Shown piece after piece: positions 8,601-15,116 of a stretch of DNA of 27,542 nt. The position numbers were made by a program, and so were the translations under genes. The stretch lies in UHGV virus genome UHGV-0088497; one strand, given 5' to 3'. The notes below the pieces were generated by a model. That model was not told the origin of the DNA. It did no database searches and was given only the letters and a program-made list of their open reading frames with translations. This stretch comes from a virus. How positions within the stretch are numbered: the stretch's first letter is position 1; each line of letters starts with the position of its first letter.

Positions 8601-8617
8601 GTGTATGGAGAAAAGTG

Positions 8618-8983
8618 ATGCGTGATATTCAAATGTTACTTGAAAGATGGGGCGGGTGGGCTGCCAGTGATAGTTCTGGCGTGGACTATTCTCCTATAGC
8701 TGCAGGATTTAAGGGGCTGTTGCCGCAAACAGGTAGATCCCGACCGTCATGTACTGACGATGATGCGCTGATCATCGAAGGTTGCCTGGCGCGATTGAAA
8801 AGCCGGAAACCATATGAGCATTCACTGCTTGTAGCTCACTATCTGTATGGAATATCCAAGAGGAAGATCGCAAAAGTGCGTAAAAAAGATGAGAAATTGA
8901 TACGGATCGAGATACAGATGGCTGAGGGGTTTATTGATGGCTGCCTTTCAATGTTGGATGTAAGGCTTGATATGGATGAATAA
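8618..8983 (+). CDS. Late antiterminator Q (QuuD / phage-21 Q family)
   Basis: MRDIQMLLERWGGWAA...IAAGFKGLL...DDDALIIEGCLARLK closely recalls E. coli DLP12 QuuD. ATG 8618 has GGAG 7 nt upstream. Confidence 0.85.
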   Translation: MRDIQMLLERWGGWAASDSSGVDYSPIAAGFKGLLPQTGRSRPSCTDDDALIIEGCLARLKSRKPYEHSLLVAHYLYGISKRKIAKVRKKDEKLIRIEIQMAEGFIDGCLSMLDVRLDMDE

Positions 8984-8992
8984 CTAATTGTT

Positions 8993-9023
8993 AACATTAT
9001 GCCCCGTGTAGGGGCCTAATGTT
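8993..9023. terminator. 13-bp-stem hairpin between convergent Q and the 4-TM gene (no U-tract)
   Basis: AACATTATGCCCC gtgta GGGGCCTAATGTT with one mismatch. It overlaps the stop codon of the minus-strand gene. Confidence 0.45.
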
Positions 9024-9471
9024 ACAAGTGAGGGAAAATTCTACGCAGCACTAACCAACACCTACCAAATGTGCAAAGTGAAAGGAGCAGCGAAGACAAT
9101 CCTAACAGGAGAAATAAAAAATCAATTGGTTGAGCAAAGACCTTAACATCCTCTGGTAAGAACATAGCGATCAGTGGAAACAAGCAGGCCAAAATCAGCG
9201 TCAACCCTGTTGATAGCAAGCGATTTATCAATGTTGGTAATATATTATTCCTTTTGAGGGCGTTAATGGCCCCATCTTTGTCACTATCTGCGCTACTGAA
9301 TATAGATATAGCGGCGAGAACAAACCCAAAAAGAATTCCTGAAATTGTCGAAAGCACACCTGCTGTAGTTAACACATCAGCATGTTTCATAGGCTTAAAC
9401 AGTTTTGTCGCTGCATAAGTAATCAGAACTAAGAGGACCACTTTCCAAAAAAGAGTTAGAAATTCTCTCAT
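9022..9471 (-). CDS. 4-TM membrane protein (149 aa), RexB-like candidate effector
   Basis: GGGAGG RBS 5 nt upstream. Four hydrophobic helices at about residues 5-25, 34-60, 81-105 and 116-142. Size and topology match lambda RexB (144 aa). LSTISGILFGFVLAAISIF resembles RexB LSSYAGTMIAILIAALTFL as I remember it (unverified). Confidence 0.6.
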   Translation of the reverse strand: MREFLTLFWKVVLLVLITYAATKLFKPMKHADVLTTAGVLSTISGILFGFVLAAISIFSSADSDKDGAINALKRNNILPTLINRLLSTGLTLILACLFPLIAMFLPEDVKVFAQPIDFLFLLLGLSSLLLSLCTFGRCWLVLRRIFPHL

Positions 9472-9489
9472 TTTGTCCTCCCTTTTGCG

Positions 9490-10437
9490 TTACTGGTTTT
9501 TTTTTGCAAGCTCATACTGTGCAAGGTAATTTGCATTATCAATTTTAGCAGATATCATCGCCGTCCTGATATCAGAATCAGAAGGATAGCCGCTTTTTAC
9601 TACTATAGTTTTCGAGCCTATGAGCACTTGATCAAGTAGGCTTTTTGGCGCTGTATCTGATGGTTCTGTTACATCAATTTTCTTGATGTTTAGCCCGCCA
9701 GAGCCTTTGGGGAATAGTTCAAGCAGTTCTTTAATAGCATCAGTAACTGATGATTTAAGATAGTTGAAGCCTGCTCTTTTGGGACGAATGCGACCGCGCA
9801 TGTTAAGTCTCAGGTGTGAACCGCCCATACCAACCACCATATCAATGATGTCATTAGTAAGGTCATTCTTAATCTGATAATTAGCTTTATTGAAATTTCT
9901 TGGCGCTGCGACAGTGAGGTCAAAACTGCGAAGGATGTTCCCATCTTCAAGAAGTTCCTTCATGCTCTCGTGCTTCCAGATAGCCTCGAATGTAACATTT
10001 TTCATTTGTGTCTTGTTGTACAGAATGAAAGATAAATCATTCACTTTGGGGCCTAAATGGTTGAGAGTCATTGCTAGTAAATCTGTTTCAAAGTAGTAAA
10101 TAAAATATGTCCGTTCTACTACTGAATCTTTATCGCTAAGCGGTATCGTTCGCTCGCTTCCTGTGGTGCCATCCTCGATAAAAGGTAAGAGACAATCACG
10201 CCTCCACGAGACATACCCAAAATAACTCTGCTGCTTATCATCCTTTTCAAGAATGACAAGTTTTAAACCGCGGTTTTGGGTTTCTGCTGTCACCACTAAA
10301 GGGAATGTAACCGGAGTCGTGTTTGTCATTTGCTCGAATGCAAGTTTCGCTGTAGACAGACCGTCTTTTTTACTTCCATTTCCAGTGAAAAAGCCAACTC
10401 TTACGCGACGAGTTTTCTTCTTATCTTCTGTAGTCAT
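9490..10437 (-). CDS. Soluble 315-aa protein, RexA-like candidate sensor
   Basis: ATG 10437; the track start at 10443 is a TTG. It lies 18 bp upstream of the 4-TM gene on the same strand and is AT-rich. The block FETDLLAMTLNHLGPKVNDLSFIL resembles lambda RexA VEGDTIGFARTVFGPTTSDLTDFL as I remember it (unverified). Confidence 0.55.
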   Translation of the reverse strand: MTTEDKKKTRRVRVGFFTGNGSKKDGLSTAKLAFEQMTNTTPVTFPLVVTAETQNRGLKLVILEKDDKQQSYFGYVSWRRDCLLPFIEDGTTGSERTIPLSDKDSVVERTYFIYYFETDLLAMTLNHLGPKVNDLSFILYNKTQMKNVTFEAIWKHESMKELLEDGNILRSFDLTVAAPRNFNKANYQIKNDLTNDIIDMVVGMGGSHLRLNMRGRIRPKRAGFNYLKSSVTDAIKELLELFPKGSGGLNIKKIDVTEPSDTAPKSLLDQVLIGSKTIVVKSGYPSDSDIRTAMISAKIDNANYLAQYELAKKNQ

Positions 10438-10675
10438 TATCAATCCGATGAGAATTTCTGATAAACGGACGAAAAATACTATAAATAATTGAGAAGATCA
10501 TTAGCGCGGTCCGCAAAAAGTGATGTAACGTGTTAAGAGTGGTTACTTGGTCACATTGCTTAATCATCAAATTCAGCTTCTGAGTTTTGTTTTAACGATG
10601 CTTGATTGTGCGACTTATCTCTCTGAAACTTATCTTCTTTTCCTTGACTATGAATTTTCTATCTAAGGAGGTTCT

Positions 10676-10924
10676 ATGTTGGGAGTGTGTTCTTGTGGTG
10701 GTAGGCTTGATGAGTCGCAGTATTCCACCGATAGCCTAGGTAATACGTTCAAATCTTGTCCAAGATGTACGCAGATTTCCGGGCATCACGTTTTCTATCT
10801 TATTGAGGAGTTTGGCGAGAGGGATATGGGGGATGGCAGAGTTATAGTGCAACCATATTGCCCATCGTGCAGAAACTACCAAGAAAGATCATTAGTTCCT
10901 GCGTTTGAGTGCAGTGGTTCATGA
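10676..10924 (+). CDS. Zinc-ribbon protein (82 aa), function unknown
   Basis: Strong RBS (AAGGAGG, 5 nt, ATG). Motifs CSCGG, CPRC and CPSC. Followed by a canonical terminator. Divergent from the RexAB-like operon. Confidence 0.65.
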   Translation: MLGVCSCGGRLDESQYSTDSLGNTFKSCPRCTQISGHHVFYLIEEFGERDMGDGRVIVQPYCPSCRNYQERSLVPAFECSGS

Positions 10925-10943
10925 TCACAACATTCAATATAAG

Positions 10944-10965
10944 ACCACCTTCGGGTGGTTTTTTT
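10944..10965 (+). terminator. Rho-independent terminator
   Basis: ACCACC ttcg GGTGGT followed by TTTTTT. Confidence 0.8.
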
Positions 10966-11088
10966 ATGACAAATCAGACATGCGCGGCGCGTAAAGGCGC
11001 TGGTGGTCGCAGAATGGAATTCTTCTCTTGCTGGTGAAGCCAACCAGAGTTATCTGTATGTCACTCTAATTGTTTAAGGGTAAAAGGC

Positions 11089-11280
11089 ATGCTAAATCAG
11101 CAAGATATGACAGAAACCGCGAAGGCTGTTTTCAATGAGTTAAGCGATAAACCAGCATCGGTTGGGGAGATTGCACAGAATACCCACCTCAGCCGCGAAC
11201 GTTGCCAACTCATACTTACGCAATTGGTGATGGCGGGATTATCTGACTACCAGTTCGGATGTTATAAGCGTTTCCAGTGA
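11089..11280 (+). CDS. Small winged-helix protein (63 aa), same family as the 567..821 product
   Basis: VFNELSDKPASVGEIAQNTHLSRERCQLILTQLVMAGL aligns by eye with VFEYLQAHPNTTSGEIAKGMNKKTPAVAGALSQLYGTG of the 567..821 product. Confidence 0.55.
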   Translation: MLNQQDMTETAKAVFNELSDKPASVGEIAQNTHLSRERCQLILTQLVMAGLSDYQFGCYKRFQ

Positions 11281-11410
11281 TATGTTTTTTTGCACTATGT
11301 GAACTGCATCAACAGTTTAGTTTTTTCTTATTTCTGGCTTAAAAATAGTTTTTGACATAACTCTTTAGCTATTAAGATTTTTTACCTTATCAACTTGATA
11401 GAGGTGAAAA

Positions 11411-11743
11411 ATGAGTGTTGAAAATTATGAAATTGCTTTAAATGATGTTGACCCAACTAACCTGGGTGCGGTTAAAGACTTATTGGAGACACACTCCCAT
11501 CTTTTCAATGACTATTTTCTAGCCGGTTATGGCGGTGATGCCCGATACTCCGTTATTGATGGCTCATTTGAAGTTATCGGTATTGGAGATGGTTTTTTTG
11601 AGTATGAGGTTGGGATTGATTTTTTTGCTGGTTGCTCAGATATGAACGATACCCACGAAGACTCTGGGATACTTGAATATGAAGTTAGAGATGGAAGTAT
11701 TCACATTGAAGTGGATGAAGCTGTCTGGAGAGTAGACAATTAA
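11411..11743 (+). CDS. Highly acidic 110-aa protein, function unknown (possible DNA mimic or anti-defence factor)
   Basis: GAGGTG RBS. By my count it has 14 Asp and 11 Glu against 1 Lys and 3 Arg. No recognisable domain. Confidence 0.6.
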   Translation: MSVENYEIALNDVDPTNLGAVKDLLETHSHLFNDYFLAGYGGDARYSVIDGSFEVIGIGDGFFEYEVGIDFFAGCSDMNDTHEDSGILEYEVRDGSIHIEVDEAVWRVDN

Positions 11744-11933
11744 TTCCCGCTTACTGATCCTAATCGCGCCGCTATAAATGGTTTGGCGGCTTTCTGCTGT
11801 GGAAATGGGCGGCTGGTGGGTGTTAGCGCACCCAGTCAGCCATCAGCTCATGCTTTCAGGTCACAAGCTAACCAAGGCCCACTGCTTTAGCGCAAAAGCA
11901 ACGTGAGCCTATCAGAGTTACGCTTACTGATCT

Positions 11934-12986
11934 ATGAAAAATACTGTAAAAATAAACAGGGTTGAGTTAATCAACGCTGATAGCCTGCATTACGTCGCCA
12001 CCCTCCCGGATAACTCTATTGATCTGATTGTTACGGATCCTCCGTACTTCAAAGTGAAGCCTAACGGCTGGGACAACCAATGGAAGGGGGACGAGGACTA
12101 CTTACGCTGGCTTGATAGCTGCCTGGCTGAGTATGCTCGCGTTCTTAAACCTGCTGGCAGCATCTACCTGTTTTGCGGTCACCGACTGGCCTCAGACATA
12201 GAGATTATGATGCGTACCCGGTTCAAAGTTTTGAATCACATCATTTGGGCAAAACCATCGGGCCGCTGGAATGGATGTAACAAAGAAAGCCTGCGTGCGT
12301 ACTTTCCATCTACGGAACGGATTTTGTTTGCTGAGCACTATCTTGGGCCGTACACAGGTAAAGAGGATGTTTACGAAAGGAAAAGCACAGAGCTAAAGCA
12401 GCACATTATGACGCCGCTGATTGATTACTTCCGTAATGCCCGTGAATCACTGGGAGTCAGCTCGAAAGAAATAGCTGAGGCAACCGGAAAGAAAAACATG
12501 GCGTCACACTGGTTTGGTGCAAGCCAATGGCAACTACCAAATGAAGTGGACTATAGAAAATTGCAGGAACTGTTCACGCGGATCGCTATCGATAAGCACA
12601 TTCAGCAGAAGCTTGAACATCCTCACCACCAGCTGGTAGCCACCTATCAGTCATTAAACCGCAAGTATTCAGAATTGCTGGAGGAATACAAAACCCTCCG
12701 GCGCTGCTTCTCTGTTTCCGCTTTTGTTCCGTATACCGACGTATGGACGCATAAGCCTGTTCAGTTTTATCCAGGCAAACATCCATGCGAAAAACCTGCC
12801 GACATGCTGAAGCAGATCATTAGCGCCAGCAGCAGACCGGGGGATATCGTTGCCGATTTCTTTATGGGCTCTGGTTCAACTGTGAAAGCTGCAATAGAAC
12901 TTGGTCGTCGGGCGATCGGCGTAGAACTGGAAACCGACAGGTTTATTCAGACCACCGAAGAGGTGGAAAAACTCAACAAAACATAA
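11934..12986 (+). CDS. Orphan beta-class N6-adenine/N4-cytosine DNA methyltransferase
   Basis: Motif IV DPPY (LIVTDPPYF) is near the N-terminus and motif I FxGxG (ADFFMGSGST) near the C-terminus. No restriction endonuclease partner is evident. Confidence 0.85.
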   Translation: MKNTVKINRVELINADSLHYVATLPDNSIDLIVTDPPYFKVKPNGWDNQWKGDEDYLRWLDSCLAEYARVLKPAGSIYLFCGHRLASDIEIMMRTRFKVLNHIIWAKPSGRWNGCNKESLRAYFPSTERILFAEHYLGPYTGKEDVYERKSTELKQHIMTPLIDYFRNARESLGVSSKEIAEATGKKNMASHWFGASQWQLPNEVDYRKLQELFTRIAIDKHIQQKLEHPHHQLVATYQSLNRKYSELLEEYKTLRRCFSVSAFVPYTDVWTHKPVQFYPGKHPCEKPADMLKQIISASSRPGDIVADFFMGSGSTVKAAIELGRRAIGVELETDRFIQTTEEVEKLNKT

Positions 12987-13129: not shown

Positions 13130-13408
13130 ATGACCAGAATGAGCACCATTTACAGCAGACTTTCATATGGATCAGGAACCACGCTTGCCGGCTGCGGTGT
13201 ATCAGCGAAGGCATATGCCGAAACAGCCAAAACAGCAAAAGAGGTGTCCTGGATGTTGGCCGACAGAATTGCAGGGTTAAGCCTGAGCGACTGGGCAATT
13301 ATTGTCGGTATCGCATGCACAGTTATCACCTGTGCAGTGAACTGGTATTTCCGCTGGAAAGAACGGGAGGATCGGCGCAATGGCTATGCCACCAAAGCTG
13401 AAGAATAA
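13130..13408 (+). CDS. Class II holin, phage-21 S (pinholin)-like, with an MTRM dual-start motif
   Basis: GGAGGTGAGG RBS. LSLSDWAIIVGIACTVITCAVNWYFRWKEREDRR parallels the S21 C-terminal half. Met1 and Met4 are separated by Arg. Confidence 0.75.
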   Translation: MTRMSTIYSRLSYGSGTTLAGCGVSAKAYAETAKTAKEVSWMLADRIAGLSLSDWAIIVGIACTVITCAVNWYFRWKEREDRRNGYATKAEE

Positions 13409-14440: not shown

Positions 14441-14522
14441 ACGCCCACGTGCAGTGGCTGTGCTTGATGGTAGGATTGACGAGAAGAGGGAAAAACTTAA
14501 AGTGCTTGGGGTAACGATTACT

Positions 14523-14645
14523 TTAATTTTTACTGGTATATCGCTTTTGCAATTCAAGTTTCGCCCAGTGCATAAGGAACCCGATTATGGGAGCCGCATA
14601 AGGGGAAAGTGCGTTAAGAAAGTCAATTAGAGTTGTGTCTATCAT
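14523..14645 (-). CDS. Small hydrophobic peptide (40 aa), missing from the ORF track
   Basis: Hand translation gives MIDTTLIDFLNALSPYAAPIIGFLMHWAKLELQKRYTSKN. It has a near-perfect RBS (GAAGGAGATACAAT then ATG). Confidence 0.4.
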   Translation of the reverse strand: MIDTTLIDFLNALSPYAAPIIGFLMHWAKLELQKRYTSKN

Positions 14646-14912
14646 ATTGTATCTCCTTCAAACCAAAATTGTGGAGATGGCTGAGGATTTCAGTCATCTA
14701 TTGTAGGGCCTAATAGGTCTTCCCATTAGTGAGTCGTAAAGATTGCGACTCTTTAAAAGATTCATTACAGGAGATATGGAAATGGTTTCGCTTCGTTTGA
14801 ACAAAGCTGCGTTAATCAGCGCCACCGGCATTCACTGAGTGTCTGCGATCATTCTTTACTAAATAATTCATGGGTTTATCATGGTGACTCTTTGATAAAA
14901 GGAGTTTTGGTA

Positions 14913-15116
14913 ATGAAATTTCTCTGGGTTGTATGCATTATTTGCGGAGTTATTGGGTTTGTGCAGGGAATTATCGGGGTGTTCGGTGCTGTTAGTGCGC
15001 CTCAGCAGGCTGCTGGTGCAGCAATGGGCGTTGCATGGGCGGTAATCCCATATTGCATCTGTCGTGCTATCCAGCAGATGAGACCACAAGAAGTGGTAAT
15101 CAAAAAAGACGAATGA
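14913..15116 (+). CDS. Small 2-TM membrane protein (67 aa)
   Basis: AAAGGAG RBS 8 nt before ATG 14913; the track start at 14892 is a TTG. Two hydrophobic helices. Followed by a terminator. Confidence 0.6.
   Translation: MKFLWVVCIICGVIGFVQGIIGVFGAVSAPQQAAGAAMGVAWAVIPYCICRAIQQMRPQEVVIKKDE

Follow-up and report, generated by a model that had tools for sequence, protein, structure and literature searches.

In the virus genome UHGV-0088497, two adjacent genes on the minus strand (positions 9022-10443) form an operon that probably encodes a RexAB-type two-component phage-exclusion (abortive-infection) module of a Citrobacter freundii lambdoid prophage. All positions refer to the whole stretch of 27,542 nucleotides that was analysed, here called the window. 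By analogy to known Rex systems, the likeliest role of the pair would be to shield the lysogen against other phages. Among abortive-infection systems, RexAB is the one that has been known for longest. Our analysis ties an unannotated family, which consists of DUF6731 and a partner with four transmembrane segments (PHROGs 7651 and 8552), to RexA and RexB. The family was found at two recurrent prophage sites, beside the repressor CI and convergent with the antiterminator gene Q, and a second recurrent site is thereby tied to Rex.

The larger, rexA-like gene is located at 9490..10437 on the minus strand and encodes a soluble protein of 315 amino acid residues (PHROG 7651), which appears to be a distant member of Pfam DUF6731. 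The mechanical open reading frame (ORF) begins at a TTG at 10443, whereas the ATG at 10437 leads to 315 residues. This length equals that of the C. freundii database protein P0001, which is likewise 315 residues long and 100% identical to the large protein. The smaller, rexB-like gene (9022..9471, minus strand) encodes a membrane protein of 149 residues with four transmembrane helices (PHROG 8552). Between the two genes lies a spacer of 18 nucleotides (9472..9489, minus strand), which reads CGCAAAAGGGAGGACAAA on the coding strand and contains a GGGAGG ribosome binding site for the small gene. Kyte-Doolittle hydropathy showed four hydrophobic segments in the small protein and none in the large protein, where a lysine- and arginine-rich N-terminus was seen in the sequence. 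The AlphaFold (AF2) model of the small protein has long helices at the residues 2-24, 30-60, 77-104 and 116-145, with a predicted local distance difference test score (pLDDT) of 80. The GC content of 9022-10443 was 40.4%, compared to 50.8% in the whole window and 54.6% in the late genes. An earlier note, made from the letters of the window alone, had described two minus-strand genes with this spacer and ribosome binding site, an AT-rich composition of the pair, and a soluble protein followed by a protein with four transmembrane segments, and all of this was borne out by the coordinates, the base composition, the hydropathy and the AF2 helices. The low-GC tract runs on past the module to about 11933 and is therefore larger than the module.

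The family of the large protein was approached by way of its relatives. When the window proteins were searched against Pfam, no family was matched, and for the large protein there was no match at E ≤ 1, DUF6731 included. Homologues of the large protein were found at 42-88% identity, and about half of them carry DUF6731. This family (PF20505) was matched by 14 of the 27 close relatives and by 123 of the 140 deep relatives, with a best E of 1.2e-26, and homologues at 46-70% identity are named 'DUF6731 family protein' by NCBI. By transitive homology, the large protein appears to be a divergent branch of DUF6731. A search of the family profile against 1.84 billion representatives returned just 171 matches at E ≤ 1e-3, so that the family is rare.

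The link to RexA was obtained by profile-profile comparison of the deep family alignment (A2, 140 sequences) to a RexA profile (A3, 26 sequences). hhalign aligned the two with an E of 4e-7 over 255 colinear columns, which connect the family positions 11-292 to RexA 2-273. In a separate run of the same comparison the score was 47.8, whereas the shuffled controls (sixty full-column and sixty local-window shuffles) had a mean of 14 and a maximum of 28, which places the score more than 10 standard deviations above the shuffles. The short block that the earlier note had aligned to RexA was recovered in the alignment, with the residues 117-145 of the large protein opposite 95-123 of RexA. Besides the 123 sequences of A2 that match DUF6731, 18 match the PADLOC model PDC-M67A (best E 1.6e-8) and a single one matches Pfam RexA (2.3e-4), and a RexA hidden Markov model gave many weak colinear matches. 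With lambda RexA as the query, phmmer found nothing significant among 187 family members, and phmmer and hmmsearch against the PDB sequences returned nothing.

The top structural match of the large protein was the fold of RexA (PDB 8TWQ), at about 12-13% identity to RexA. In the model, an N-terminal sheet with helices is followed by a beta-alpha-beta-alpha-beta-alpha-beta insert and then by a final strand and a C-terminal helix, and this order of elements matches the split globular domain and the inserted dimerisation domain published for RexA. The predicted structure has the RexA fold, which is RdgC-like: a split globular beta-sheet domain into which a dimerisation domain of four strands and four helices is inserted. 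Against BFVD, Foldseek found four uncharacterised phage proteins and nothing else. Since the relationship was detected by profile-profile comparison only, we regard the large protein, on the evidence of the profiles, as a remote homologue of RexA that stands outside the curated RexA family (Pfam PF15969 and the PADLOC RexA model).

The small protein gave no direct match to the RexB models (Pfam PF15968 and PADLOC), and a BLASTP comparison with lambda RexB found nothing. In NCBIfam it matched a MusI-family membrane protein weakly (MusI_fam, E 0.006). The comparison of profiles was made with seven RexB sequences, taken from loci beside diverse RexA homologues. The window-type small-protein family (A5) aligned to this RexB set in hhalign with an E of 4e-4. 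We then included the partners encoded at distant DUF6731 loci, of which 2 were obtained by exact look-up, 49 were metagenomic and 26 were viral contigs (L166-L191). A partner profile of 73 sequences aligned to RexB with an E of 1.2e-4, and its score was reached by none of 100 local shuffles. In the PADLOC scan, for which lambda RexB served as the positive control, RexB came out as the top match for five of the nine distant partners, with E-values from 4.6e-5 to 0.012, and the alignments ran colinearly along most of the model. The Pfam RexB model matched one distant partner at just 0.064.

The same connection was made by jackhmmer when the window small protein was used as the query against 2,628 six-frame ORFs of all fetched loci, about 2,500 of which were decoys. 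Lambda RexB was taken in at round 3 with an E of 3.2e-5, before any RexB had entered the profile. At the end, all 10 distinct RexB-type ORFs of the rex loci were included and none of the decoy ORFs, and the matches numbered at most one per locus, all on the strand of the module. The window protein and the distant partners have a motif in common in the second transmembrane segment (TM2) and the following loop, approximately G-(T/I)-L-(F/L)-G-F-x-x-A-A-x-x-I and then (D/N)-(R/K)-x-L-I-x-N-(L/M)-x-(K/R)-T-G-H-(F/Y), whose counterpart in RexB is GTMIAILIAALTFL...RRLAKIREYGYM. No other part of the small protein is as conserved as this motif in common with RexB. The block that the earlier note had aligned to RexB was recovered by hhalign as well (residues 30-82 of the small protein with 38-85 of RexB). 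The small protein is a four-helix membrane protein and, by the transitive link of its profiles, appears to be a remote homologue of RexB.

The two genes are kept together. In 82 of 83 close prophage loci the pair was intact and adjacent, and convergent Q and DUF968 genes follow in nearly all of them. In nearly all distant loci that are complete enough to judge, a gene for a protein with four transmembrane segments (about 141-180 residues) comes after the large gene or overlaps its end, and the relatives have a short gap or an overlap between the two genes. In one prophage (L059, 6001-6690) the large gene matches only the residues 3-238, the small gene was not detected, and the module is probably disrupted. 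Over 80 loci, the identity of the large protein to its window counterpart correlated to that of the small protein with r = 0.99, whereas the correlation to Q was about 0.1. The pair is inherited as a unit and, as its identity is unrelated to that of Q, it moves as a cassette, one that lambdoid prophages, by this evidence, often exchange at this site. Among the loci L024-L106 there are, for example, pair alleles of 45% identity beside Q genes of 92% identity.

As the earlier note had stated, the pair runs convergently with Q and lies outside the cI-rex immunity operon. It stands beside Q in 76 of 80 close loci, and in 11 loci of other lambdoid prophages very divergent alleles, of about 20% identity, are present at this Q-convergent site. 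At other distant loci the module comes immediately after a gene for a Peptidase_S24 CI-like repressor and has its orientation, and the repressor gene in turn is divergent from a Cro-like gene. This gives a lambda-like cI-rexA-rexB layout, for instance in L169, L184 and L187, in which a Pfam match confirmed the S24 repressor. In L168 the module adjoins the lysis genes in the same orientation. The earlier proposal of a remote RexA/RexB-like pair was supported by the profile-profile alignments, the transitive RexB link, the architecture of the pair and this lambda-like context of the distant members.

Among 5,426 complete E. coli genomes, 225 (about 4%) contain DNA that is about 75% identical, and the antiterminator Q gene adjoins the module DNA in 20 of the 20 top-ranked E. 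coli records. The family also occurs in Citrobacter, Serratia, Yersinia, Aeromonas, Shewanella, Vibrio and many metagenomes. A megablast search against the phage collection gave no match, and the scan of genome contigs gave only 3 loci. In RefSeq both E. coli homologues are annotated as hypothetical, and PHROGs 7651 and 8552 are families of unknown function. In L001, the one E. coli locus examined in detail, the holin gene comes directly after the module; in this strain, WY517-2, an IS3 element interrupts the DUF968 gene nearby (L001, 5670-7995). The segment of Q plus module was also present at 3 places on E. coli plasmid records such as NZ_CP104632.1 (100,861 bp), which are possibly phage-plasmids.

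Two non-coding elements flank the pair. Between the convergent stops of Q (8983) and of the small gene (9022-9024) a hairpin was found at 8988..9027, with no strand assigned, which is a candidate terminator for both the module and Q. Its folding free energy is -20.2 kcal/mol with a z-score of -4.85, and none of 200 shuffles folded as well. On the other side, a conserved non-coding block lies at 10472..10562 (core 10505-10548), 35-125 nucleotides upstream of the large gene; it is assigned to the minus strand as a candidate promoter/operator. It contains the palindrome GCGGACCGC, an inverted repeat GTAAC-N12-GTTAC and a TATAGT hexamer that resembles a -10 element. Its conservation exceeds that of the coding sequence on its flanks. 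In 10 loci (alignment A8) it is nearly invariant, with proteins that have diverged to 62% identity, and it was present at the equivalent place in 63 of 83 window-type loci (at most 10 mismatches in 44 positions), about 105-175 nucleotides upstream of the large gene in the relatives (loci L027-L099). Sites found in a consensus promoter scan were no more numerous than in shuffles.

Just beyond the block, most relatives have a GC hairpin between an A-run and a T-run, with compensatory changes between the loci, which looks like a terminator on the strand of the late genes. The window itself is without that hairpin. From these sequence features, the block could be the promoter/operator of the module or part of a late control region like pR'/qut/tR'. 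A further reading, which we put forward with little confidence, is that the Q-convergent site is more than a place for cargo and that the block is a shared divergent control region. The Rex-like module would then be wired to the Q-dependent late switch of its own prophage; once the resident phage turns to lysis, the module might, for example, be shut down or its sensor given another target. In most relatives the hairpin and T-run follow the block on the late-gene strand, which would resemble pR'/qut/tR'. If true, such wiring would be a mechanism of self/non-self discrimination for a Rex-type abortive system.

As a RexAB-type exclusion system, the module would act as follows, by analogy to lambda RexAB and to the RexABpp pair of Pseudomonas putida. 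The soluble protein would be a DNA-binding dimer that senses a superinfection event, probably a replication or recombination intermediate of the incoming phage or a phage protein. It would then activate the membrane partner, which may oligomerise into a channel or pore. The membrane potential and ATP would drop and growth would stop, such that the cycle of the incoming phage is not completed. Transcription probably starts from a promoter of the module's own in the block 10472-10562, directed away from the late operon, and would end at the hairpin shared with Q. With its own promoter and the shared terminator, the operon could be expressed in the lysogen without Q.

A different role is also conceivable. 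The pair could serve the prophage's own development and not defence, by biasing the decision between lysis and lysogeny, by protecting replication proteins or countering host death modules, as has been reported for RexB, or, in view of its place where Q and the late operon meet, by tuning late transcription or the time of lysis. We consider this unlikely. In its favour, the module is fixed beside Q in the close and distant loci counted above, the block between the module and the late genes is more conserved than coding sequence, and lambda RexA has an effect on the bistable switch that does not require RexB (PMC11077077). On the other hand, the missing correlation between the identities of the pair and of Q argues for cassette exchange and not for co-evolution with Q, the family also resides at other sites, beside CI and beside lysis genes (L168), and low GC together with antisense orientation is typical of accessory cargo.

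With an exclusion function, the roles of the two proteins may also be exchanged. In the pair gp30/gp31 of mycobacteriophage Butters, the effector is the RexA-like protein of the cytosol, and defence does not need the membrane protein (PMC12894663). If the window pair had the ancestry of RexAB but followed this reversed logic, the toxic or antiviral activity would belong to the soluble RexA-like protein, and the membrane protein would only sequester or restrain it. Both logics occur among Rex-like systems (PMC12894663) and our computed data do not separate them. We hold the reversed logic to be improbable, since the membrane protein is the effector in four of the five Rex-like systems described (PMC12894663) and the conserved TM2-loop motif suits an active channel better than a passive anchor. 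It is very improbable that the small protein provides surface-level superinfection exclusion (Sie-like) or a lysis-related membrane function (holin- or antiholin-like) without sensing of the Rex type. A multi-pass membrane protein encoded near a lysis cassette and the weak match to the MusI family would fit such a role; it leaves the strict pairing with a cytoplasmic protein of RexA fold and the profile link to RexB unexplained, and the genes are antisense to the lysis operon. Kiwa, with the membrane sensor KwaA and the DUF4868 effector KwaB, had been named as the main alternative in the earlier note and can practically be dismissed, because the likeness, a four-transmembrane protein next to a soluble one of about 315 residues, is superficial, the gene order is opposite, neither the window protein nor its 140 relatives matched DUF4868 in Pfam, no Kwa model was matched in PADLOC, and the best fold and profile matches are RexA and RexB.

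For the RexAB-type reading, several results weigh on the other side. Neither window protein reached the RexA and RexB models of Pfam or PADLOC (for RexA none at E ≤ 1), jackhmmer started from the large protein converged without reaching RexA, and Foldseek gave no significant match in the PDB. The shallow family profile (A1) aligned to RexA with an insignificant hhalign E of 0.04, which means that the deep alignment was required for the RexA link. The hhalign probability changed with the settings, from 92.8% in one run to 8% in another (E 4e-7 and 3e-6); we therefore relied on the E-value and the shuffle controls, and the probability should not be quoted alone. The link to RexB is concentrated in TM2 and the loop after it, up to the beginning of the third transmembrane segment. 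The database names of the family are all 'hypothetical' or 'DUF6731', and literature searches returned no paper on DUF6731 or on the RefSeq accessions. The position outside the immunity operon makes expression in the lysogen an inference, for which the promoter scan was uninformative, and the function of the family is proposed by analogy. The PADLOC scan of the window proteins gave only a weak match of the large protein to PDC-M67A (E 0.003).

With lambda RexA/RexB (PF15969/PF15968; 8TWQ) the window module has in common two adjacent, co-oriented genes, with the soluble protein first and a four-transmembrane protein of about 145 residues second, the carriage by a lambdoid prophage, the full-length match to the RexA profile and the transitive profile link to RexB. 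In length, the large protein exceeds lambda RexA by 36 residues. Lambda RexAB lies downstream of cI in the immunity operon, whereas the window module sits where the late region begins, in convergent orientation to Q, and its regulation is presumably different for this reason. Rex-like pairs at positions other than downstream of CI are already accepted in the literature. RexABpp, the pair PP_5643/PP_5644 of the P. putida prophage P1 (Sci Rep 2026, PMC12894663), was compared by its published description only; it is located two genes downstream of a CI-like repressor and its membrane protein is longer (at least 181 residues). The published residue fingerprint of RexBpp was absent from all 26 partners on the viral contigs.

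The actinobacteriophage pairs Sbash gp30/31, CarolAnn gp44/43 and Butters gp30/31 are also two-gene exclusion modules of temperate phages with a soluble and a membrane protein, likened here by description. They have little sequence similarity to lambda Rex, their position relative to the repressor varies, they belong to phages of another host phylum, and Butters has the reversed effector logic. From the profile matches, the module also appears to relate to the PADLOC candidate PDC-M67. The window proteins did not match PDC-M67B, and one distant partner matched it weakly at 0.017. Neither DUF6731 nor PDC-M67 has a described function, the PDC-x systems are unpublished candidates, and literature searches on PDC-M67 and the PHROG identifiers found no paper.

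By the count of a 2026 paper, just five Rex-like systems had been described, and divergent RexAB-type systems found in the same way were already reported and validated (PMC12894663). The module therefore adds a member of an accepted kind at a non-canonical site and no new principle. It is missed by the RexA and RexB models of PADLOC and by Pfam. The family provides well over a hundred co-varying pairs for the prediction of the RexA-RexB interface, and its enterobacterial alleles would be easy to test.

The surroundings of the module were assigned by PHROGs. Upstream are an anti-repressor gene (Ant), an HNH/DUF968 gene and then Q (8615-8983, plus strand). From the module towards lysis follow three small genes of unknown function, a DNA methyltransferase, the holin (13130-13408), the endolysin and Rz. 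The earlier note had placed the pair between Q and the lysis genes; this position was correct, but the module is not adjacent to the latter, since about 2.7 kb of other cargo lie before the holin. Within 10676-12986, the three small genes on the plus strand encode proteins of 82 residues with CxxC pairs (phrog_7682), 63 residues (phrog_331) and 110 residues (phrog_13663), and the methyltransferase is a DNA adenine methyltransferase of 350 residues. This segment is further accessory cargo at the site of the module. The methyltransferase and the 63-residue gene are present in some relatives, whereas others, such as L001, pass straight from the module to the holin. Further low-GC stretches (38-41%, compared to a window average of about 51%) were observed at 1501-2500 and 14501-15000 and may be additional acquired cargo.

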